Shown here piece after piece: positions 2,298-57,712 of a DNA stretch of 64,000 nucleotides. The first letter of the stretch is position 1; each line of letters opens with the position of its first letter. The translations under genes and the position numbers were made by a program. The notes beneath the pieces were generated by a model, which did not search any database, had not been told where the DNA came from, and saw only the letters and a list, made by a program, of their open reading frames with translations. Source of the stretch: a virus. Where the stretch lies: the IMG/VR virus record IMGVR_UViG_3300031994_000086, positions 1-64,000 of that record; one strand, given 5' to 3'.

Positions 2298-3434
2298 TTA
2301 TTCCTCTGCATCGCCGCCTAAAACATAATCAATAACCTTCCTGTTTGCTTCGTCAACCTTGCGTTGATTGAAGTCAACATACACACTCGTAATCTTAAAT
2401 CCGTTTGAGTGACCGAGAGCTGCTGCGATAGTCTCCATAGGGATATCCAGGGATGCAGCAATCGTTGCCCAAGTATGACGTGCATAATATGTTGTGATAT
2501 CTTTGCCAAATATCTTCAATATCTTGTTGGCTCTGCGCATCACATACATATAGTTGGAGTTTTCTCCATAAGAGAGGAGTTTTTTCTTTCCTCTATATCT
2601 GTTGATAATCTCCATCGCCTCAGGCTCTACCTTTACAGAATAGAGTCTACCCGTCTTACTTCTTCGGTATTCCAACCTGCCGTTTACTAACTGTTCAGGT
2701 GCCGCATTGAGAAGGTCAACGCTGTTTATGCCTATAAGATAGAACATAAGGACAAACAAATCCCTGTATTTGGATTGTGCGCTTGTCAGCTCCGTTTGCG
2801 AGATGATAAACCGTAGTTCTTCTATCGGAATGTTACGTTTTCTTGTCTCCTCAGAGGGGATGGAAAATTTGCGAAACGGGTAATTGTCCGTAAGGTCGTG
2901 TTTGATTGCCCAGTTCATTACAGAACGGATATTTCGCAGATGAATAGCCATAGAGTTGACCATCAGTTCATCATTACGCATAAAACGCACAAAATCTTCA
3001 AGCCACGTCACTGTTATATTCAATGAGGCGTGGCTATCAAAAGCATCAACCTTTCTCGATGTGGCTATATACATTTCTTTTGTACGTTTCGCCTTGCAAC
3101 TTTCTGAGTACATCATTATATATTCTGACAGAGATTTGTCAAACGCTCCTTTGCCGAATACCTTATCCATGATAAGCCTGCGAAGTTCGTCGTGTGGCAT
3201 CAGGGAGTTTTCAACGGCAATCTGCTCAATACGGTCAAGATATTCATTGAGTTTTATAGTCTTTGCCTTGTGATTACTCTCTGTGCGAGGGAACACACCG
3301 TCAGAGAAAACAGACTTGGTAAACAGACCAGTGTGTATGTAGAGCCTCTGAGGAGGTCGTGACACACAGACATATATAGGCATTGAGCCATCAGCACGTT
3401 TGCGTTGTTGATTTATAAACTGATATATTCTCAT
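2298..3434 (-). CDS. int: tyrosine site-specific integrase (phage integrase family)
   Basis: 378 aa; C-terminus 'ARHTWATIAASLDIPMETIAAALGHSNGFKITSVYVDF' matches the R...H-x-x-R...Y catalytic box II of tyrosine recombinases; lies beside a tRNA-like att core. Confidence 0.8.
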   Translation of the reverse strand: MRIYQFINQQRKRADGSMPIYVCVSRPPQRLYIHTGLFTKSVFSDGVFPRTESNHKAKTIKLNEYLDRIEQIAVENSLMPHDELRRLIMDKVFGKGAFDKSLSEYIMMYSESCKAKRTKEMYIATSRKVDAFDSHASLNITVTWLEDFVRFMRNDELMVNSMAIHLRNIRSVMNWAIKHDLTDNYPFRKFSIPSEETRKRNIPIEELRFIISQTELTSAQSKYRDLFVLMFYLIGINSVDLLNAAPEQLVNGRLEYRRSKTGRLYSVKVEPEAMEIINRYRGKKKLLSYGENSNYMYVMRRANKILKIFGKDITTYYARHTWATIAASLDIPMETIAAALGHSNGFKITSVYVDFNQRKVDEANRKVIDYVLGGDAEE

Positions 3435-4202: not shown

Positions 4203-4805
4203 TTATACTAATCTACCGTAGAAAGTGACACGGTATAGCTGTTTTATATCCTCTTTGCGAATAGAGAATGGTTTGTAATTATATGATGTACATATCAAAC
4301 TGTCGGCATCGTTATCATCTACTTGCAGATGCTTAATCATTCTATCGTAGGTGGTAATGATGAGGTATATTTTGTCAGGGTCTATGTATTGATTGCGCTC
4401 TACTTCATCCACCACGATGATATCGCCAGCCTTTATCACTGGCTCCATAGAGCATCCAACTACAGGGAAAGCATATTTGCCGTGCACACCGTCAATCTCT
4501 ATTCTGCCTACTGGCTTTTCATTAGCTATTACGGTTGCGAGGTCATACTGCCCTGCGCTTACCTGAACATCTTTATAATAAGGTATTCCTCTATCAGATA
4601 GATGTGCTACGGGTTGCGTAGTGGGGTAGAAATAAGACATCGGGAGTCCGAGGGCGGTGCTTAGTTCTTCTACAAGCCCCGTCTTAATGTCTTGGGCATC
4701 TAATTTCTGACTAAATGATTGCTGGCTGAGATTTAACAGCTTTGCAATTTCTGTTAGTGACTTTCCAGTTTTCTGGAGTTGCATTTTAAGTACTTCGCCT
4801 GTCAT
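4203..4805 (-). CDS. CI/LexA-like phage repressor (N-terminal XRE HTH plus C-terminal S24 peptidase)
   Basis: 200 aa; 'SLTEIAKLLNLSQQSFSQKL' HTH; 'VVGCSMEP' Ser nucleophile motif and a downstream Lys ('MIKHLQ'); divergent from early genes. Confidence 0.75.
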   Translation of the reverse strand: MTGEVLKMQLQKTGKSLTEIAKLLNLSQQSFSQKLDAQDIKTGLVEELSTALGLPMSYFYPTTQPVAHLSDRGIPYYKDVQVSAGQYDLATVIANEKPVGRIEIDGVHGKYAFPVVGCSMEPVIKAGDIIVVDEVERNQYIDPDKIYLIITTYDRMIKHLQVDDNDADSLICTSYNYKPFSIRKEDIKQLYRVTFYGRLV

Positions 4806-8193: not shown

Positions 8194-8634
8194 ATGAAAT
8201 TAAATGTATTGTACCGCAACGGAGTGTTAGCGCCTTGTTACAACGAGGATTATGAGAAAGCCAAGAGCCTCCCACAGAATACACCTCTGAGCGCAAGTTT
8301 TCAGACATATAGAAATCCTGACTTCAACAGGAAATACCACGCACTGATAAATCGTGCCTGGGAAGTGATGAATGAACAACAGACATCTTTCTTCGGTGCG
8401 AGAGGCAAGGAGGCTTTCAGGAAATCTATGCAAGTGACGGCAGGGTTTTATGACCCAGTGTATAACTTCTCGACAAAACAGTGGCAACAAGTTCCACGCT
8501 CTACATCCTTTGAGAACATGGAGGAAGATGAGTTTAACGAGTTGTATAACGGGGTGTATGATGCTATCAGGGCATTGTTCACTAATAGCAGTATGACAGA
8601 AGATGAATTTGATGCGGTATTTTGTGATTTTTGA
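8194..8634 (+). CDS. hypothetical protein
   Basis: 146-aa ORF. Confidence 0.4.
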   Translation: MKLNVLYRNGVLAPCYNEDYEKAKSLPQNTPLSASFQTYRNPDFNRKYHALINRAWEVMNEQQTSFFGARGKEAFRKSMQVTAGFYDPVYNFSTKQWQQVPRSTSFENMEEDEFNELYNGVYDAIRALFTNSSMTEDEFDAVFCDF

Positions 8635-8834
8635 CTATGAGAACAGCAAAGGTAATACCAATAAAGAGCGAGTTTATATCCAATGCTAAGGCACAGGAAT
8701 ATCTCGGTGTAAACGCAACGTTTTTCAAACGCTTGCGAATGAATGCTCAGATACACTATTATCGTGTAGGTAGAACGGTGTTCTACAAAGTCAAAGACAT
8801 CAATGATTTGATAGAAAAGAATAAAATACTTTGA
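8631..8834 (+). CDS. small HTH/excisionase-like DNA-binding protein
   Basis: 67 aa; 'AQEYLGVNATFFKRLRMNAQIHYYRVGRTVFY' resembles the MerR/Xis-type HTH common in Bacteroidales elements. Confidence 0.45.
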   Translation: MTMRTAKVIPIKSEFISNAKAQEYLGVNATFFKRLRMNAQIHYYRVGRTVFYKVKDINDLIEKNKIL

Positions 8835-9745
8835 CTATGGGAAAGAAATTCACGTTTTATCGCAGATGGTGGGATTATCTCTCTGAGTTTGACGATGATA
8901 TAAAGCTTGCATCATACGATGCTGTCTTTGCCTATATCTTTGAACACACAGAACCCGATAACGGTATTGTGAAAGCAATAACAAAACCAATCTTCTCTGA
9001 GATTGATAAGGAAGAAGAAAAGACGGAGGCACTAAGACAGAAGCGTAGCGAAGCAGGGAAAAAGCATAAGGGAAATCAACATACAAAGACTAAAAACGAT
9101 AAAAAATGGAACAAGTGTTCCAAAAATGGAACAAGTGTTCCAAAAATGGAACAAAATGGAACAAGTGTTCCAAATTTAGAGAAAAAAGAAACAACAAATA
9201 CGAAAGATAGTATAGAAAATTGGAACAAGTGTTCCAAAAATGGAACAAGTGTTCCAAAAACAAACGAAAGTGAAGAAAAAAATAAAACAAAAAAAGAAGA
9301 AATCCCCCCACACCCCCCTATAGAAGAAAAAAATAAAACAAAAAAAGAAGAAACAAACTATAATGCGTGCGAGAAAAAAAAATCGGACAGAGAAAAAAAT
9401 GAGAAATCTCTTAGAGAAAGGCAAGCCGCTTTTGCATCAGCCGTCCAGGCGCACGCAGAGAACTATGACGAAGCAATGCTCAGGGATTTTATAGACTACT
9501 GGACTGAGCCAAATAAGTCTTACTCTAAGATGCGCTTTGAACAGGAACGGACGTGGGAACTGAAACGCAGGCTTGACTATTGGGAAAGAAGAAGTAAACA
9601 ATTCAAACGTATAAGCTATGGCACCACAAACAGTAACGGATATATTGCACCAGAGTTACGTGCAACCCAAGAGCGAAGAGAACAAGAAGAACGTCTTGCA
9701 GTGCGTATCAGGCAACTTGCAGAGGAAGATGGAGGCGGTATGTAG
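8831..9745 (+). CDS. replisome-organizer-like replication initiator with internal iteron array
   Basis: 304 aa; N-terminus 'FTFYRRWWDYLSEFDDDIKLASYDAVFAYIF' resembles a phage replisome organizer N-domain; central K/N-rich low-complexity region is encoded by the iterons. Confidence 0.5.
   Translation: MTMGKKFTFYRRWWDYLSEFDDDIKLASYDAVFAYIFEHTEPDNGIVKAITKPIFSEIDKEEEKTEALRQKRSEAGKKHKGNQHTKTKNDKKWNKCSKNGTSVPKMEQNGTSVPNLEKKETTNTKDSIENWNKCSKNGTSVPKTNESEEKNKTKKEEIPPHPPIEEKNKTKKEETNYNACEKKKSDREKNEKSLRERQAAFASAVQAHAENYDEAMLRDFIDYWTEPNKSYSKMRFEQERTWELKRRLDYWERRSKQFKRISYGTTNSNGYIAPELRATQERREQEERLAVRIRQLAEEDGGGM
9101..9345 (+). repeat. candidate origin: 5 copies of inverted-repeat iteron 'aaaatGGAACAagTGTTCCaaa' plus duplicated A-rich block
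   Basis: Copies start at 9108, 9128, 9158, 9222 and 9242, with a half copy at 9147; 20-30 bp phasing; 'gaagaaaaaaataaaacaaaaaaagaagaaa' occurs twice at about 9283-9350. Confidence 0.5.
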
Positions 9746-10247
9746 GCGATACGGAAACCGTGAGAAGTTTCTACATCAGATGTCGCCCGTCTATCAGACC
9801 TATGCAGCACAGAACCCTGACAAGGCTTTCTTCGGTGACGCTCCCACACTGACGGTTATCAATGCCACCTATGGCAAGAATACTGCAGTGATGTGGTTGA
9901 TACCGCAGCTCAACAACGTGTCACGCTTCTGTGGGTGCAAAGAGAGGCTGACGGATGAAGTGACAGAGGAACTGGCAAGGAGCATAGCCGCTGAATACTA
10001 CTACCTCAAAACGTCTGAACTGATGTTATTCCTCCAACGGTTTAAGATGGGACACTATGGACGTTTTTACGGAGCAGTTGACCCTCTTGTTATCACCACC
10101 GCACTGCAAGACTTCCTCGCTGACAGACGCACAGCCTATGCCAAGCACCAGCAAGAGGAAGAGCGCAAGCAGCGTGAGGCGTGGGAGAAGGAGGAGAGAA
10201 TGACTTACGAGGAATACAGGCGGTTCAAAGCAAAGAGGAATGAATAA
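9729..10247 (+). CDS. hypothetical protein (downstream of replication initiator; start adjusted to the first ATG after the overlap)
   Basis: In frame with the listed 9618 ORF; likely translationally coupled to the 8831-9745 gene. Confidence 0.4.
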   Translation: MEAVCRRYGNREKFLHQMSPVYQTYAAQNPDKAFFGDAPTLTVINATYGKNTAVMWLIPQLNNVSRFCGCKERLTDEVTEELARSIAAEYYYLKTSELMLFLQRFKMGHYGRFYGAVDPLVITTALQDFLADRRTAYAKHQQEEERKQREAWEKEERMTYEEYRRFKAKRNE

Positions 10248-10971: not shown

Positions 10972-11706
10972 ATGAAAAAATATGAACTTATCCCCTCGGA
11001 CAAGAAGGGATTATACCAAATAAAAGCAATATGTGACTTTGGTAACATCAAAACAGGCGATATAGGCGGTTACATCGAGAGCGAGGGGAACCTAAGCCAC
11101 GACGGTAACGCTTGGGTGTACGGTAACGCTAAGGTGTACGGTAACGCTGAGGTGTACGGTAACGCTGAGGTGTGCGGTAACGCTGAGGTGTGCGGTAACG
11201 CTAAGGTGTGCGGTAACGCTAAGGTGTGCGGTAACGCTATAGTGTACGGTAACGCTAAGGTGTGCGGTAACGCTAAGGTGTACGGTAACGCTGAGGTGTA
11301 CGGTAACGCTGAGGTGTACGGTAACGCTTGGGTGTGCGGTGACGCTTGGGTGTACGGTAACGCTAAGGTGTACGGTGACGCTGAGGTGTACGGTAACGCT
11401 GAGGTGTACGGTAACGCTGAGGTGTGCGGTAACGCTAAGGTGTGCGGTAACGCTTGGGTGTGCGGTGACGCTGAGGTGTGCGGTAACGCTGATTATATAG
11501 TTTTCAAAAATTGGTGGAGCAGCGGCCGATACTTCACGTGGACCCGCTCTAACAACAAGTGGGCTGTAGGTTGTTTTTACGGCACAGGTGAGGAACTGAT
11601 AGCCAAGGCATACGAAGACAGCGAGAAGTCGGGGTGTGAATATGAGCGTATAGTCAGGTATGTGGAAGAAATCCTAAAGGGAACCATAAATGAAAAGAAT
11701 GAATAA
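10972..11706 (+). CDS. hexapeptide tandem-repeat protein (about 21 copies of V-[YC]-G-[ND]-A-[EKW])
   Basis: 244 aa; strong SD 'aaaggagg' upstream; near-perfect 18-nt DNA repeats; unique N- and C-terminal domains. Confidence 0.5.
   Translation: MKKYELIPSDKKGLYQIKAICDFGNIKTGDIGGYIESEGNLSHDGNAWVYGNAKVYGNAEVYGNAEVCGNAEVCGNAKVCGNAKVCGNAIVYGNAKVCGNAKVYGNAEVYGNAEVYGNAWVCGDAWVYGNAKVYGDAEVYGNAEVYGNAEVCGNAKVCGNAWVCGDAEVCGNADYIVFKNWWSSGRYFTWTRSNNKWAVGCFYGTGEELIAKAYEDSEKSGCEYERIVRYVEEILKGTINEKNE
11101..11490 (+). repeat. 18-bp tandem repeat array ('ggtaacgct[ag]aggtgt[ag]c') of about 21 units inside a CDS
   Basis: Visible directly; units differ at only 2-3 positions. Confidence 0.8.

Positions 11707-14476: not shown

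Positions 14477-14489
<13 letters not shown>
14199..14489 (+). CDS. hypothetical protein
   Basis: 96 aa; 'ttattattaat' box upstream. Confidence 0.4.
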
Positions 14490-15226
<737 letters not shown>

Positions 15227-50329: not shown

Positions 50330-50425
50330 GAATGTTTATTTGCAAATTTAGAATAAAATTCTTATTTTTGCAAATAAAATTAGAGAAAAATTCTTATTTT
50401 TGTAGATAAAATTAGAAAAAACGTA
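50330..50425. promoter_or_regulatory. divergent promoter region with tandem roughly 38-bp repeat carrying TAttTTTG -7 motifs
   Basis: 'aaattcttatttttgcaaataaaattaga' and 'aaattcttatttttgtagataaaattaga'. Confidence 0.4.
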
Positions 50426-50444
50426 TATTTGATATAGAATTTGT

Positions 50445-52076
50445 ATGTCAGAGTTTGAATGTTTTGTGGATGCCTATGGTCACCAGGTCTATACACAGAA
50501 CTACATACAGGGACTACGTGATGCAGACACGAAAAAAAGCGATGGGCTGAAAATCATCGCTCAGCGTGGCGCACAGGAGAGGATTTTGGCTCAAAATGCT
50601 GATATTCTCATCTGTGGAGGTAACCGTGGCGGCTCAAAGACTTTCTCTTTGCTCCTTGAAGGACTATATGACTGCTACGACTCGCATTTTAACGCTATCA
50701 TCTTCCGTAGGGAAAAGCCAGACCTTGATGGCATCATAGATGTGCACGACCAAGTGTATAGTCAGTACGGCACATACAATCGCTCAGACAATGACAAGGC
50801 ATGGTATTTCAACAATGGCGGAAAACTCAAACTGAATTATTACAATGATGAGTTTGAGGACTTCAAGAAGCGTTTTCAGGGACATCAGTATTCTTATATA
50901 GGTGTTGACGAGATAACGCAGATGCCATACAATAAGTTCAAGTATATGCTTACTTGTAACCGTAACGCCTATGGCATACGCAACCGCTTTATAGGGACGT
51001 GCAACCCTGACCCTGACTGTTGGGTGCGCATCTTCATAGACTGGTGGATTGGTGAAGATGGCTATCCTATCAAGGAACGTGATGGTGTACTCCGTTACTG
51101 TTTTATGGACGGCGATGACCCCCATTCTATCTATTGGGGAGACTCAAAGCAAGAGGTGTACGAGCAGTGCAAGCATATCATTGACCCTTTATGGAGTGAC
51201 AAGTATGCGGAGTTAGGCTACAATAAGGTGGATATGTTTATCAAGTCCGTCACTTTTGTGAAAGCTGCCCTCGAAGATAACGTAAAACTCCTTTCGTCAG
51301 ACCCGACGTATGTTGCCAACCTCGCAGGACAGGATGAGGAACAGCGTATGCGTGACCTCGATGGTAACTGGAACTGGAAGAATACAGGCTCTGACCTTAT
51401 CAAAATGGCGGATTTAGAGCAGGTTTTCAATAACTCTCAGCAAGAAGGTGACGGAGTGCGCAGAGCCTCGTGCGATATCGCCTTTACGGGTGGTGATAAC
51501 CTCGTTATGTGGCTTTGGGAGGGCAATCACATACTCGACCTGTATGTCTGCCGTACGGACTCACGTATCGTTGTAGCAACTGTCAAGGAGAAGTTGGCAG
51601 AGTGGGGGGTATTGGAGGAGAATATGACATACGACCTCAATGGCATAGGGCAGTATTTCAAGGGCTATTTCCCGTCAGCGATGCCTTTTAACAATATGGC
51701 GGCTCCGATAGCGCAGAACAGTAACGACGCAAAGGGTATCAAGTACCTCTATGCCAATTTGAAGTCTCAATGCGCATATATCTTCTACAAGATGATACTG
51801 TCGCAGGAGATAAGCATAGATAATCGTCTGTTAGAAAAAAAGTACTCTGGTAACGGCTATGAGAACCGTCCTCTGCGTGATATACTTATGAAAGAACGTA
51901 AATGTTTCCGTCGTGCGGTATCATCAGAGGATAAGGGCTTTGCGCTGATAAAGAAAAGTGAGATGAAACGTATAGTTGGGCACTCTCCTGACTTTTGGGA
52001 GTCCCTTTTCTATATAGTTATATTCCAGTTGCATAAGAACAAACATAAAAAACCTAAGGGGCTATGGATGTATTAA
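50445..52076 (+). CDS. terL: terminase large subunit
   Basis: 'ILICGGNRGGSKTFSLLLE' (Walker A), 'YIGVDEITQMP' (Walker B); C-terminal nuclease-sized region. Confidence 0.8.
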   Translation: MSEFECFVDAYGHQVYTQNYIQGLRDADTKKSDGLKIIAQRGAQERILAQNADILICGGNRGGSKTFSLLLEGLYDCYDSHFNAIIFRREKPDLDGIIDVHDQVYSQYGTYNRSDNDKAWYFNNGGKLKLNYYNDEFEDFKKRFQGHQYSYIGVDEITQMPYNKFKYMLTCNRNAYGIRNRFIGTCNPDPDCWVRIFIDWWIGEDGYPIKERDGVLRYCFMDGDDPHSIYWGDSKQEVYEQCKHIIDPLWSDKYAELGYNKVDMFIKSVTFVKAALEDNVKLLSSDPTYVANLAGQDEEQRMRDLDGNWNWKNTGSDLIKMADLEQVFNNSQQEGDGVRRASCDIAFTGGDNLVMWLWEGNHILDLYVCRTDSRIVVATVKEKLAEWGVLEENMTYDLNGIGQYFKGYFPSAMPFNNMAAPIAQNSNDAKGIKYLYANLKSQCAYIFYKMILSQEISIDNRLLEKKYSGNGYENRPLRDILMKERKCFRRAVSSEDKGFALIKKSEMKRIVGHSPDFWESLFYIVIFQLHKNKHKKPKGLWMY

Positions 52077-54867: not shown

Positions 54868-56409
54868 TTAGTCTGTTTCTTCTATGTATGTCTCTTTGTT
54901 CAAGTTTACCTTGTCCTCGCTTTTAAGGAATGTCTCGTTTCTTATCACAAACGGCGTGAGCAGGTCTCTCATCATTATGCCATAGAGCTTGTACTGGTAG
55001 CCGTCTCTGTCTCTTTTCTTGTCAAAGCCCATAGATGACAGGGTATGTCCCACTTTCTGTTTTGTAGGGCAGTCCACGCCGTTATCCTCGCAGAAGTCGG
55101 CTATACAGTTGTATATCTCTGCCGATGTCACCCATATATTCGCCTCATTCCTTGCCTGTGCCTCTGCACGTACGTGATAGGCATTAGCCCAGGCTATTAT
55201 CGGGTTTCCGTGCAGCTGTGCCAACAGCAGTTGTCTCCTGCTTCCCTCTGCATCAGGGAACTGGAACTTACGTTTCCTTATCTCTCTTGTACCTCTCATC
55301 ACCCAGTTGAAGATACCGCTGTACTCCTTTGCAAGCTCGTGAGCAAGTTCCTTGTTCTGTTTCTCTTCTGGTATAGTGACCTCAAAAGACACAAACTGCA
55401 GTCTGCGTATAAACCCTAACGAGTTGTCATCGGGGTACGGCAAGTCATTGAGATTAAAGATAAGGTACGGCAGTCGGAAGTTCTGTGCCACATTACCGCC
55501 TATTGCCCTGTCTGTTACAGGCTCTCCGCTGACTATTCTCTTGAATACACCTGTCCTTTTCTTCCCAAAGGTACGTGAGTCACTGTCAGACGACCAGTTG
55601 AAGATGGCATCGCGCAATAGTAACCTCGCACGCATACCCTCATCACCTCCTGCAGTCAACTCGTCATAATCCACTCCGCTTATCCTGCTCTTGCCGAATA
55701 CTCCCATAGCAGTCTGATACACCACACTCTTACCGTTAGCACCACTGCCTATCAAGACAAGGCACAACTCCACCTTTGACCTCTCCTTACCCTCTGACTG
55801 CTCATAGACAGTACCTCTCTCTATCAATCCCAGTCCTAAGAACATCTGCAGTATTATCCTGCTCCTCTTGTCAGGCAACACCTCTTTCAAGAACTCCTGC
55901 CACTTAGGACACTTAGCCTGTGGATTGTAAGGGTACGGATGATAGTACAGACAGTGATATGACGTAGAGAAGCTGTGGAAACTGCAATCCTCTAACTCCA
56001 ATACACCGTTGCTGAAAGCCACAATGTCTAACCTCGGCTCTAACTTGTTCGTTATCTTTATAGAACGCATAAAGTCAAACTTGAACACATCACGCTTACG
56101 CTTCTGAGACAACTTCAAACCTATACGCATCATCCATAAGTCAAACGCACTCTCTACCGCATCCATACTCACAGGAACATATATCCTGCCGTCAAAAACA
56201 TAGAATACACCATTGTGCCACTTCAAACTACACCTCGCAGCAATGTTGTATATCTCCTCTATCAAGGCATTCTCTACCTCAGGCTCATAACGATAGTGAA
56301 CATCACGAAACATCTGAACAACCTGAGACATCCTACTGTCTATACCCTGACTCAAACTAAATAACTCATCGTACACTAACGTACGCATCTCAATCTCTGT
56401 CATAATCAA
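54868..56409 (-). CDS. P4/D5-family primase C-terminal domain plus SF3 helicase protein
   Basis: 513 aa; 'LVLIGSGANGKSVVYQTAMGVFG' Walker A in a D5_N/Primase_C-like context. Confidence 0.55.
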   Translation of the reverse strand: MIMTEIEMRTLVYDELFSLSQGIDSRMSQVVQMFRDVHYRYEPEVENALIEEIYNIAARCSLKWHNGVFYVFDGRIYVPVSMDAVESAFDLWMMRIGLKLSQKRKRDVFKFDFMRSIKITNKLEPRLDIVAFSNGVLELEDCSFHSFSTSYHCLYYHPYPYNPQAKCPKWQEFLKEVLPDKRSRIILQMFLGLGLIERGTVYEQSEGKERSKVELCLVLIGSGANGKSVVYQTAMGVFGKSRISGVDYDELTAGGDEGMRARLLLRDAIFNWSSDSDSRTFGKKRTGVFKRIVSGEPVTDRAIGGNVAQNFRLPYLIFNLNDLPYPDDNSLGFIRRLQFVSFEVTIPEEKQNKELAHELAKEYSGIFNWVMRGTREIRKRKFQFPDAEGSRRQLLLAQLHGNPIIAWANAYHVRAEAQARNEANIWVTSAEIYNCIADFCEDNGVDCPTKQKVGHTLSSMGFDKKRDRDGYQYKLYGIMMRDLLTPFVIRNETFLKSEDKVNLNKETYIEETD

Positions 56410-57184
56410 CCTCCTTCTTCTAATTCTATAACTCTAAATCCTAACTAATAAATAAACCGTATCAACTATATTTTACTTAAATAATTGACAAAAGTCAATT
56501 TTAACCCCGATAATTCATTTTTGTGATAAAAACACAAATCATACACACTGTATAACGTGCAGATAATCACATATATACAAATTTCGTGTGAACGAGTGAA
56601 CGCACCAGAGGGGGGCACTAAGAATTTCTACGAGCGTGAACACGAACGCAAAAACATAGTTTTTATTCATATAATACACAAAGTTAATAAATTCTACGCA
56701 ATTAGACAAATATTCATACATAAATAGAATTTTATTCATACATAACTGTGATAGAACTTGAATTATTTTACATTTTTTTAAGTATGTTAATTTAGGGAAT
56801 TTTAACAATTGGAAATTCGGAGAGAAAAATTTTGGGAAAAATTTGGGAGAAAAATTTTTGAAAAAAAATATTTAGGGGAGGTCAATAGGGGTCCCCATTT
56901 GACTTACATCAAGGGGGGTGTATACCCTTTCACTTAAAAACTATACATAAAGACGGCTAAATGTGCATAAAAGTAACATTTTGTTACTTTTTAGTGTGCG
57001 TTTGTGTCGCTTTGCAAGCGTTGGAACGTGGCGCATAATAAAACGTTAGTTTGTTTGTGTATGTGCGAAATTATGCGTACCTTTGTAATAGATAAAGGAT
57101 AAAACGTTATCCGATGAGTTAGCGACAATATAAAACAGGGAAAATTTCCCTAAAACATATTATTAACTTAAAAAATTTGAAATT
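56410..57184. promoter_or_regulatory. AT-rich ori/promoter-like region with short direct repeats and G6 tracts
   Basis: 'gggaaaaatttgggagaaaaattttt' repeats at 56815-56870; G6 at 56610 and 56913. Confidence 0.3.
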
Positions 57185-57712
57185 ATGACTACAAGAAACG
57201 AAAAGCAAATCAAGAATTTGCAGAAAGAAGAAACCAGGAAAGCAACGGTTAAAACTTCTAAGGGAGGAACAACAGACCCAACGGGCGAAAAGATGGAGAA
57301 AACAGACAAAGCGACCTTTGTCAAACTCTTTCAAAAAGTTGTTAACAATCATCTTTCCGAGATGCTCGCGGAAACTTGCAAACTTGCCCAAAGTAACGAA
57401 GAATTAAAAGAGGAGGGCGCAAAAATTGCAGAAATGCTGAATGAGTTGCAAAAGTATTCTTGCCGTTGGCAATCTTTAGGAGATGCAAGTTTAAGCAAAG
57501 ATTCTTTCAAATCTCGCATAATGAGAGAAGACGAAGAAACGGGCTATTATCTTGTAAGAAATGACGGCACAGTTTCCGAAATTGCGGGAAATTTACACTC
57601 ATTCTTTGTATATAACAAAGAACGTGAAAGGATTGCAGAACGTAAGAGGTTACAAGCGTTTAAGAATTTGAGCCGTGAAGAACAAATTAAACTGCTTTCT
57701 TCTTTGATGTAA
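57185..57712 (+). CDS. hypothetical K/E-rich protein
   Basis: 175 aa; 'attattaac' box at 57161. Confidence 0.4.
   Translation: MTTRNEKQIKNLQKEETRKATVKTSKGGTTDPTGEKMEKTDKATFVKLFQKVVNNHLSEMLAETCKLAQSNEELKEEGAKIAEMLNELQKYSCRWQSLGDASLSKDSFKSRIMREDEETGYYLVRNDGTVSEIAGNLHSFFVYNKERERIAERKRLQAFKNLSREEQIKLLSSLM

Follow-up and report, generated by a model that had tools for sequence, protein, structure and literature searches.

Does a cluster of short repeats inside a protein-coding gene mark the place where this phage begins to replicate its DNA? The first-pass annotation had proposed an origin-like iteron array within a replication-initiator gene, and all of the computational tests we ran support that proposal: the constraint on the repeats as DNA, their position in a protein linker, the A-rich block beside them, domain fusions in relatives, and the co-variation of a protein motif with the repeat type. 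We consider it likely that the array and the A-rich block form a replication origin inside the initiator gene, of the type known from lambda O and SPP1 gp38. The phage is a temperate phage of Bacteroidales.

The array and the gene that contains it

Within the window (the whole 64-kb stretch of DNA analysed), the 16-bp palindrome TGGAACAAGTGTTCCA is present in five perfect copies, at 9107-9122, 9127-9142, 9157-9172, 9221-9236 and 9241-9256, and one lone TGGAACA half-site lies at 9147-9153, which bears out the earlier count of five full copies and one half copy of an inverted repeat. With up to three mismatches allowed, the rest of the 64-kb window yielded no further copy of the 16-mer, and the observed palindrome count was not matched in any of 100 dinucleotide shuffles. 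The 7-mer TGGAACA occurs 11 times in 150 bp at the array versus 9 times, each copy single, in the other 63 kb, which is approximately the chance rate. Three palindromes and the lone half-site make up cluster I (9102-9176, unstranded), with half-sites at 9107(+), 9116(-), 9127(+), 9136(-), 9147(+), 9157(+) and 9166(-) and tracts of four to five A residues between them; cluster II (9216-9260, unstranded) holds two palindromes, with half-sites at 9221(+), 9230(-), 9241(+) and 9250(-). The palindrome starts are separated by 20, 30, 64 and 20 bp, so the spacings of 20 and 30 bp reported previously both occur, but the 64-bp gap had gone unmentioned. Half-sites start 9-11 bp apart. The 22-bp repeat unit of the first-pass annotation accordingly gives way to a 7-bp half-site at 9-11 bp phasing; judged from the sequence, this half-site with its approximately 10-bp phasing is the putative functional unit. 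A lambda-type origin calls for at least three to four repeated, helically phased sites, and here there are 11.

The array and the A-rich block lie wholly inside a putative replication initiator gene (8837-9745, + strand), whose product matches Pfam DUF6291 and, at aa 117-259, phrog_19415. The mechanical open reading frame begins at TTG 8831, giving the 8831-9745 gene described at first, but ATG 8837 agrees with a 302-aa database protein (P0001) and is most likely the true start. The match to DUF6291 (PF19808) covers aa 7-79 at 38.4 bits, against a gathering cut-off of 27.2 (E=1.4e-9), within an N-terminal three-helix domain (8837-9076, + strand; aa ~4-82, helices at 11-17, 22-38 and 45-82) that AF2 models with a pLDDT of 91-97 through aa 70. 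At the C-terminal end of helix 3 is a basic motif, KRSEAGKKHKGNQ (9041-9079, + strand; aa 71-83), which we propose as the element that may recognize the half-site. Residues 84-175 have pLDDT values below 50 and are predicted to form a disordered linker between two confident domains, and the DNA coding for precisely these residues coincides with the array plus the A-rich block. In other words, the array occupies the inter-domain linker of the putative initiator gene, as is looked for in a lambda-type origin. Beyond the linker are a helical domain of the YWTEPNKS..KMRFE..TW type (9365-9616, + strand; aa 179-262, pLDDT 84-96), proposed to be a recruitment module, and a C-terminal tail helix, YIAPELRATQERREQEERLAVRIRQLAEEDGG (9650-9727, + strand; aa 274-299), which co-varies with the downstream DUF6633 gene.

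The A-rich block consists of two identical arms, GAAGAAAAAAATAAAACAAAAAAAGAAGAAA at 9272-9302 and its copy at 9323-9353, which form a perfect 31-nt direct repeat around the C-rich core CCCCCCACACCCCCC at 9304-9318 (all three unstranded). The duplication noted before is thus real, although these are its coordinates and not 9283-9350. Arm 1 is a candidate unwinding region: the pair of 31-mers follows directly downstream of the iterons, and its 30-bp duplex instability is at the 99.4th percentile of the window. Over 60-100 bp, where the C-rich core raises stability, it stands at only the 93rd-96th percentile of instability, and the window contains duplexes less stable than this block. No other 250-nt segment of the window is as rich in A as 9150-9399 (58% A versus 28.6%). 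A 79-nt island that includes the block is 100% identical to a locus whose genes have otherwise diverged (L043, which shares only 9273-9351), and in 10 loci the core CCCCCCACACCCCCC follows the repeats, which there are of at least four types. Relatives carry AT-rich hexamer tracts at the corresponding place, and the order of iterons followed by an AT-rich tract, which is a signature of an origin, is kept in every class examined. An A9 run in the same gene, at 9374-9382 and not at 9376-9384, had been called slippage-prone; we saw no sign of this, and in the close relative L039 the difference at this point is a substitution and not one of length.

The window protein itself does not resemble a described initiator. 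It has no Pfam or NCBIfam match to the DnaD C-terminal domain (PF07261 DnaB_2 / TIGR01446), no match to TIGR02220, and no Pfam, PHROG or NCBIfam match of the Phage_rep_O or lambda O type; neither a Rep_3 match nor the winged-helix (WH1-WH2) fold of a Rep protein was found in it. Fold searches gave only weak matches to generic helical bundles, a PDB sequence search gave none, and the literature searched held no characterization of the DUF6291 N-terminal domain. The identification as an initiator comes from domain fusions in relatives. An exhaustive phmmer search with aa 1-88 returned 183 clusters (50% identity) at E<=1e-3. Among these relatives, P0053 joins DUF6291 to a DnaD domain (TIGR01446, 1e-22) and P0054 joins it to TIGR02220 (2.5e-33), both with an HxGNQ-type basic motif and a TGGAACA array; P0064, like P0053, combines a DnaD domain with the N-terminal domain and array of the window. 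The C-terminal domain of the window type also stands behind DUF4373 (P0045) and HTH_36 (P0059) N-terminal domains. DnaC/IstB-like genes lie downstream of the initiator in two relatives, L046 and Cellulophaga phi13:2, and gp56 of Olleya phage Harreka_1 is annotated as a 'replication protein'. The family is spread over phages of Bacteroidales (Prevotella, Bacteroidaceae), cultured phages of Flavobacteriia, and very low-GC contigs. INPHARED contains no near-identical cultured phage; tblastn against cultured phages gave matches to the C-terminal domain alone, all of them hypothetical proteins; a protein-pattern scan of species-representative genomes found no relatives; and the C-terminal domains of most relatives are absent from Pfam.

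Constraint on the DNA and the motif that co-varies with the repeat

The copies in the window are read in frames 0, 1 and 2 as WNK, NGT and MEQ, and the reverse word of the half-site as CS, VP or VFQ; the translation of the repeats given previously, WNKCSKNGTSVPK, is correct. Across 10 loci, 94 half-sites occur in all three frames and both orientations, with a spacing of 9-11 bp in 74 of 84 cases. For 17 non-redundant loci, with GC contents from 24 to 53%, the 126 half-sites have the consensus AAA(A/T)TGGAACAA. Relatives differ in the orientation of their half-sites and in their number (3 to 17), and some, L047 and L065 among them, have direct half-sites only. The array is intergenic in L054 and in the Bacteroidales MAG L060, and no DUF6291 gene was found in the DNA examined for these two loci. 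The word is read independently of frame and also exists between genes; the repeats are constrained as DNA and not as protein. A DNA-pattern scan of species-representative genomes recovered a single true array, from a Bacteroidales MAG; its two other hits, both in Actinomycetota MAGs, were unrelated operator palindromes of the IclR type. Three metagenome loci with 44-bp units (L067, L075 and L076) were also set aside as unrelated, their context not being that of a phage.

In a comparison of 150 family representatives, possession of the HxGNQ motif was predictive of peptides encoded by TGGAACA, which were found in 58 of 64 representatives with the motif versus 6 of 74 without it (p=9e-25); the six exceptions to the rule bear variant motifs. 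Starting from the DNA instead, the motif lay 18-141 nt upstream of the array in 12 of 16 metagenome loci. The motif KRSEAGKKHKGNQ is kept as protein while its codons vary synonymously (8 distinct DNAs), and its coupling to the array holds across approximately 70 clusters (<=50% identity) with diverse N- and C-terminal domains. Other motifs go with other repeats: AG(R/K)KG(G/A) with AGCAAA (L043, CRP19 and L082), AGK(K/A)SAE(L/K)R with TYCAACA (Harreka_1 and phi13:2), and AKKGGAPKGN with ten copies of AACAACCAAA (L083), while L041 pairs an N-terminal domain other than DUF6291 with TAACGCA at 12-bp phasing. The original proposal had named relatives that keep the protein and lack the repeats as grounds for rejecting it. 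We found none; either the repeats are kept, or another repeat accompanies another basic motif. The motif is immediately upstream of the array, so part of the association could be physical linkage, and homology to L039 begins at 9039, at the motif.

A bolder reading, to which we assign a low probability, is that the basic extension could be a compact, modular DNA reader with a nearly one-to-one code between motif and half-site, the iteron/AT-tract cassette being a portable origin. The pairs of such a code may be HxGNQ with TGGAACA, (R/K)KG(G/A) with AGCAAA, K(K/A)SAE(L/K)R with TYCAACA, and KKGGAPKGN with AACAACC. Were this so, the intergenic arrays of L054 and L060 would be 'orphans' in phages that have no initiator; such phages would rely on an initiator supplied by a co-resident phage, or else use their arrays as decoys that titrate the initiator of competitors.

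Known origins, neighbouring genes and other explanations

The origin of lambda lies within O, where iterons that are inverted repeats bind dimers beside a 40-bp A+T-rich region (PMC5043065). In lambda that region opens (PMC5043065). The window has its putative origin likewise within the putative initiator gene, with phased dyad repeats of a type to which initiator dimers bind, A-tracts between them, and then an A-rich candidate unwinding region; as predicted from the sequence, its initiator would also bind DNA through the N-terminal part and recruit the next factor through the C-terminal part. The two differ in detail. The window site is a 7-2-7 palindrome whose 7-bp half-site also occurs directly repeated at 9-10 bp, and the lambda sites are four inverted repeats of 19 bp; the N-terminal domain, a small bundle of three helices that ends in a basic tail, has no relationship to Phage_rep_O; the A-rich region is made up of two copies of a 31-mer on either side of a C6ACAC6 core; and the next gene, which in lambda codes for the helicase-loading partner, here codes for DUF6633 and not for a P homologue. 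In lambdoid phages, the N-terminal domain and the iterons are exchanged together, and the same is seen here. The layout is probably that of a textbook lambda origin, but in an unstudied initiator family, DUF6291.

SPP1 offers a second parallel: at oriL, direct repeats for the origin-binding protein gp38 (G38P) lie in its own gene, beside an AT-rich unwinding element, and the helicase loader gene comes next (PMC6316719). The window likewise has its repeats inside the gene of the putative origin-binding protein, with an A-rich candidate unwinding region adjoining. However, the proteins belong to different families; SPP1 has a second origin, oriR, while we found no second array in the window; and SPP1 codes for its own DnaB-type helicase, gp40, whereas the window phage has only a D5-like helicase. 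The DnaD-type replisome organizers (PF07261/TIGR01446, TIGR02220) are connected to the window by P0053, P0064, P0054 and P0039, which join the DUF6291 N-terminal domain, motif and array to C-terminal domains of these kinds, although the window's own C-terminal domain is a different, unannotated helical domain (phrog_19415) with neither DnaD nor TIGR02220. The comparators are phages of Firmicutes, such as Listeria A118/A500 and the lactococcal TP901-1/Tuc2009, whose rep genes have internal repeats; in lactococcal phages, origins have been described inside rep genes. Iteron plasmids (P1, F, RK2, R6K, pSC101) are further removed: their direct repeats of ~17-22 bp lie outside the rep gene and are bound by monomeric winged-helix Reps (Rep_3/RepA), whereas the window array is inside the initiator gene and neither Rep_3 nor a winged helix was detected.

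The initiator gene is part of an Erf-exonuclease-SSB-NinB early operon. Upstream is an excisionase-like HTH_17 gene (8631-8834, + strand; Pfam), and downstream is a DUF6633 gene (9729-10247, + strand; Pfam, 75.3 bits), a neighbour conserved in synteny at the position held by DnaC-like loader genes in relatives. DUF6633 is modelled confidently by AF2 (pLDDT 92), but it has no confident structural homologue, its PDB sequence search was empty, and it shows neither the AAA+ P-loop of a DnaC/IstB-type helicase loader nor homology to lambda P. Far off and on the other strand, the window also codes for the D5-like (primase-helicase-like) protein, with AT-rich repeats upstream; no convincing iteron array lies alongside it, and no second TGGAACA array was found in the 64-kb window. 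Given this gene, a second replication system or origin is possible. GC skew was rejected as an origin marker: it follows gene orientation only and therefore cannot test the origin idea.

The DUF6291 protein might bind the repeats in a mainly regulatory role, with replication starting at another place, perhaps close to the gene for the D5-like helicase; such a role could take the form of autoregulation, copy-number handcuffing, a transcriptional roadblock or fork arrest of the sort suggested for gp38 at SPP1 oriR. The co-variation of motif and repeat speaks for coupling of protein and site only, not for firing, the separate primase-helicase-like protein with its upstream AT-rich repeats offers another candidate location, and gp38 has been proposed to stall forks at oriR (PMC6316719). 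We nevertheless think this improbable, since the iterons precede an AT-rich tract, the order typical of an origin, in every class examined, no convincing iterons accompany the D5-like gene, and many array-bearing relatives have no D5-like gene in the DNA examined. It is also unlikely that some other factor (a host protein, HTH_17 or DUF6633) binds the half-sites and that the motif is associated by adjacency only. The intergenic arrays with no DUF6291 gene in the DNA examined would fit such a factor, as would the contribution of linkage between motif and array and the presence of TGGAACA-N2-TGTTCCA as apparent operators before IclR-type genes and in the 44-bp-unit context. But neither neighbour co-varies with the repeat type: HTH_17 is 85% identical between L043 and L045 despite different repeats and is missing from L039, and the DUF6633 of the window shares 95% identity with that of L041, again beside different repeats. 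A host-specific factor is hard to reconcile with one half-site kept across loci whose GC content ranges from 24 to 53% and whose hosts presumably differ widely. Selection on the motif acts at the protein level, with its codons drifting synonymously and its coupling to the array kept in approximately 70 clusters, and each of three further motif classes is paired with a repeat of its own.

Mosaic breakpoints do fall at the edges of elements (L039 is homologous from 9039, L043 only over 9273-9351), and half-site number and orientation are variable, so that the repeats and the A-rich/C-rich block could be seen as products of recombination or slippage at a module boundary, with no binding function. 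We give this very little weight: neutral slippage would not hold an invariant 7-mer, helical phasing and both orientations amid unalignable flanks, and would leave the pairing of each repeat type with a particular basic motif unexplained, while module boundaries are expected at origins anyway and are compatible with origin function. A packaging site (pac or cos) or an RNA structural element is still harder to credit. Pac sites can also be repeated protein-binding sites within genes, and the palindromes could form short hairpins, but the array is part of the early recombination/replication operon and ~41 kb away from where the terminase is encoded (50445-52076), an Rfam search was empty, and the relatives with direct half-sites only imply that no hairpin is conserved. 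Least credible of all is that the repeats matter as protein, for instance by supplying an NGT-rich linker, of low complexity or sequon-like, that the initiator requires. NGT-rich peptides do occur in many relatives, but one DNA word read as WNK, NGT or MEQ effectively refutes the idea, the region is predicted to be disordered, and the array is untranslated in L054 and L060.

A candidate origin and its implications

If the array is an origin, initiation might proceed as follows. The DUF6291 protein would bind the 7-bp half-sites through its N-terminal three-helix domain, with the basic extension KRSEAGKKHKGNQ setting specificity; it would occupy a 7-2-7 palindrome as a dimer and a half-site that is lone or directly repeated as a single unit. 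Eleven sites at approximately 10-bp phasing, with A-tracts between them, would place the protein on one helix face and wrap or bend the DNA, and the resulting stress would open the adjoining A-rich/C-rich/A-rich block (9272-9353). The C-terminal domain and tail would then recruit the next factor, perhaps DUF6633 in the window phage and, in some relatives, a DnaC-like loader; that factor would in turn bring in a replicative helicase, either host DnaB or the phage D5-like helicase. Binding, the dimer or monomer state, the site of melting, the recruitment partners and the firing of the origin are all inferred. The candidate minimal origin spans approximately 9040-9360.

For gut and rumen anaerobes, few replication origins are available as tools for building shuttle vectors or 'origin decoy' constructs that give phage resistance, and the candidate at ~9040-9360 would supply one from a temperate Bacteroidales phage. 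The co-variation of motif and half-site predicts specificity determinants. For annotation, 'low-complexity' phage linkers rich in NGT, VNVN or DNDN can be cis-acting DNA that is simply read through. For DUF6291, a family of at least 183 clusters at 50% identity, the analysis suggests a concrete function, that of a putative origin-binding replication initiator.

The repeat array and the A-rich block

Five perfect copies of a 16-bp palindrome, TGGAACAAGTGTTCCA, start at 9107, 9127, 9157, 9221 and 9241, and a lone half-site, TGGAACA, lies at 9147. None of 100 dinucleotide-preserving shuffles reached this palindrome count, and no further copy of the 16-mer with three or fewer mismatches was found in the 64 kb. 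The array holds 11 TGGAACA half-sites within 150 bp; the remaining 63 kb has 9, all isolated, roughly as many as chance would give. The iteron array reported by the first-pass annotation is therefore present, with the 20- and 30-bp spacings it described, although it omitted the 64-bp gap separating the two palindrome clusters. The gene it placed at 8831-9745 probably starts at ATG 8837, and its A9 run exists but lies at 9374-9382 rather than 9376-9384.

Sequence comparison indicates that the repeats are features of the DNA and not of the protein. Spacings of 20 and 30 bp place the window's copies in different reading frames, so that they are translated as WNKCS or as GTSVP. The linkers of relatives that are 25-55% identical elsewhere are rich in NGT, WNK and MEQ, the three frames of (A)TGGAACA. 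Across 94 half-sites in 10 distinct loci, all three frames and both orientations occur (68 forward, 26 reverse), with 74 of the 84 spacings at 9-11 bp and 79 near multiples of 10. The consensus from 126 half-sites in 17 non-redundant loci is AAA(A/T)TGGAACAA. Since the arrays of L047 and of L065, a 24%-GC phage contig in which the array was confirmed as DNA (TGGAACA x4 at exactly 10-bp spacing), consist of direct half-sites throughout, neither the palindrome nor a hairpin is the conserved feature. In the AF2 model of the window protein, the N-domain (helices 11-17, 22-38 and 45-82) and the C-domain (179-262) plus a tail helix are confident; disorder is predicted for residues 84-175, which coincide exactly with the stretch that the array and A-rich block encode. 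In two further loci, L054 and L060, the same half-site array, with an AT-rich hexamer tract after it, stands outside any long ORF. Frame independence and these intergenic copies exclude the explanation that the repeats matter at the protein level.

The arrays in L054 (10249-10340) and L060 (about 1890-1990, stored orientation) are 'orphans' of 4-5 sites from a second phage group. The two phages are syntenic, with a DUF932-like gene followed by a protein of 84-101 aa resembling MutS domain I, and the stretches examined contained no DUF6291 gene. Single TGGAACA-N2-TGTTCCA sites also occur upstream of IclR-type genes in Actinomycetota MAGs (L059 3429-3456, L061 7734-7761), and the same palindrome is found in L067, L075 and L076 within 44-bp units that precede a gene for a secreted protein, outside any phage context. 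Convergence of unrelated operators on one sequence is the probable explanation.

Downstream of the array, a C-rich core, CCCCCCACACCCCCC, at 9304-9318 sits between the two copies of a perfect 31-nt A-rich direct repeat (9272-9302 and 9323-9353). Positions 9273-9351 form a 79-nt island with 100% identity to L043, whose surrounding genes are unalignable or at most 72% identical, and the block forms a 95.5% identity island with L041. Ten loci, with at least four different repeat types between them, have a core of the form AAGAAGAnnT-C5-6ACAC5-6-TATAGAAGAA downstream of the array; at the equivalent position, other relatives show AT-rich tracts of hexamers such as (GATAAT)n, (GTAAAT)n or (GTAAGT)n. 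Nearest-neighbour stability ranks the A-rich arms at the 99.4th percentile of instability for 30-bp stretches, and the block at only the 93rd-96th for 60-100 bp. No 250-nt stretch of the window is richer in A than 9150-9399 (58% versus 28.6%). We infer that the block is an unwinding or loading region. Owing to compensating 1-nt indels, the C-rich core, which has homologous sites in L048-L051, is translated as PPHPP in the window but as PPTPP in L049 and L051; as poly-C encodes proline in any frame, selection on DNA and on protein cannot be distinguished there from sequence.

The DUF6291 protein and its relatives

The window protein matches Pfam DUF6291 above threshold; the literature searched held no description of this family, and sequence comparison found no solved-structure homologue. 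Two related proteins with the same basic motif and array join the DUF6291 N-domain to a DnaD domain (P0053; TIGR01446, 1e-22) or to the phage TIGR02220 C-terminus (P0054; 2.5e-33). For these fusions, L065 supplied the check at DNA level. The window-type C-domain also stands behind DUF4373 (PF14297) in P0045 and HTH_36 (PF13730) in P0059, both typical N-domains of phage replisome organizers. A DnaC/IstB-like gene is next downstream in two relatives (L046; Cellulophaga phage phi13:2 gp005, COG1484), and another DUF6291 protein, Olleya phage Harreka_1 gp56, is annotated 'replication protein'. By domain architecture, the window protein is a predicted replication initiator.

The last approximately 34 residues of the initiator (YIAPELRATQERREQEERLAVRIRQLAEEDGGGM; 9650-9745) are identical in proteins with otherwise different N- and C-domains (window, L039, L041, L082, L083). 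This tail co-varies with the overlapping downstream DUF6633 gene (9729-10247), and its identity among the window, L039 and L041 parallels that of their DUF6633 proteins (93-95%), which suggests either a tail-partner interaction module or merely a linked recombination unit. The predicted structure of DUF6633 is confident and all-alpha, with no informative structural match.

The module that tracks repeat type

To ask which protein reads the repeats, we compared modules across loci. HTH_17 was rejected, being 85% identical between L043 and L045 though their repeats differ, and absent from L039, which has the window's array. DUF6633 was likewise rejected, with 95% identity between the window and L041 despite different repeats. 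Nor does the helical part of the N-domain discriminate: residues 1-68 are 67% identical between L043 and L045, with different repeats, and the L039 N-domain is unalignable to the window's, with an identical array. Homology between L039 and the window starts at 9039, the first codon of a basic motif (AGxxHxGNQ-type, aa 71-83) at the end of helix 3, and on these comparisons that motif is the module that follows repeat type. In 8 distinct DNAs, KRSEAGKKHKGNQ is kept as protein with free synonymous variation, and each has 4-14 half-sites within the following 200 bp.

An exhaustive phmmer search with aa 1-88 gave 183 clusters, and we analysed the best 150 of the 183 representatives, taking as a proxy for an array two or more NGT, WNK or MEQ tripeptides within the 70 residues after the motif position. 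Among these 150, the proxy was positive in 58 of 64 with AGxxHxGNQ versus 6 of 74 without (Fisher p=9e-25), and all six exceptions carry a motif variant outside the search pattern. Searching from the DNA side, the motif is encoded 18-141 nt upstream of the array in 12 of 16 metagenome loci; the other four are intergenic L054 and three with the 44-bp-unit architecture in a non-phage context.

Other motifs go with other repeats: AG(R/K)KG(G/A) with an AGCAAA core (L043, Riemerella CRP19, L082), AGK(K/A)SAE(L/K)R with TYCAACA (Harreka_1, phi13:2), and AKKGGAPKGN with ten perfect 10-bp units of AACAACCAAA (L083). About ten TAACGCA units in 12-bp phasing occur in L041, which has an N-domain other than DUF6291, and L049 and L051 combine a further N-domain with a further repeat. 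An initiator that reads the iterons through its own N-terminal module would be expected to produce such pairing; in lambdoid phages, the O N-terminus and its iterons are likewise exchanged together. Part of the association could come from adjacency, but it persists across approximately 70 clusters (at most 50% identity) with varied flanking domains and a locus GC range of 24-53%, which favours functional coupling.

Genomic setting and the case for an origin

The window is a temperate phage or prophage, encoding two tyrosine integrases, an S24 (CI/LexA-like) repressor and DNA methylases as well as a capsid protein, large terminase subunit and portal protein. Its rightward early operon comprises Erf, a RecE/Cas4-like exonuclease, SSB (DUF3127), NinB, HTH_17, the repeat-containing gene and DUF6633, an order kept in relatives. 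Prevotella sp. and Bacteroidaceae MAGs are the named sources of DUF6633 homologues, and an uncultured Bacteroidales MAG carries one TGGAACA array; the host is therefore a member of the Bacteroidales. The window contains no tRNA genes or Rfam families. At its left end, adjacent convergent tyrosine-recombinase genes (1440-2273, +; 2298-3434, -) adjoin the S24 repressor gene (4203-4805, -), and no tRNA gene or att site was identified. Other repeats include (GGCTAT)x38.5 at 14525-14755, encoding a long Gly-Tyr dipeptide repeat in a 249-aa ORF (14477-15226), and an 18-nt unit x21.7 at 11102-11492 in the early region, encoding YGNAKV repeats of a YdcK-type beta-solenoid or bactofilin-like protein (ORF 10972-11706). 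A 32-nt AT-rich repeat (2.5 copies, 50344-50430) directly precedes the large terminase gene (50445-52076) and may mark a late promoter or a packaging site.

The first-pass annotation had read the array as a replication origin, and our results support this: we consider it likely that the array is the phage's origin and that the protein encoded across it binds there. Ori-lambda maps within O, its inverted-repeat iterons bind O dimers, the iteron DNA is intrinsically bent, and a 40-bp A+T-rich region is adjacent (PMC5043065). The window matches this layout, with iterons inside the initiator gene and adjoining A-rich DNA, although by sequence its protein belongs to none of the lambda O, DnaD and plasmid Rep_3 families. 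A pac site and an RNA element are improbable alternatives: the array lies in the early operon, some relatives have direct-only arrays, and there is no Rfam match. Less probably than an origin, the array may be purely regulatory or bound by a different factor.

If the array is an origin, the initiator would bind palindromes as dimers and lone or direct half-sites as single units, coating one face of approximately 150 bp of A-tract-phased DNA and distorting it, and the distortion would open the A-rich block. The C-domain and tail would then recruit the downstream protein and a helicase, either host DnaB or the D5_N/DUF5906 protein (54868-56409, -), whose match is to the helicase portion of phage primase-helicases (phrog_864, 7e-52). 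The latter's gene lies on the opposite strand in a low-GC stretch (36-38%), with AT-rich 12-25-nt repeats upstream (56410-57185) and no convincing iteron array nearby; its product could be the recruited helicase, or the locus could represent another replication system or an independent mobile island.

An element of this kind is itself unsurprising and its organisation is textbook, but the literature searched held no description of the protein family, the half-site or the proposed basic-motif reader. The result gives a predicted function to the uncharacterised DUF6291 family and delimits a candidate Bacteroidales phage origin that could be put to use; the proposed link between motif and half-site is a specificity hypothesis that lends itself to a clean test.
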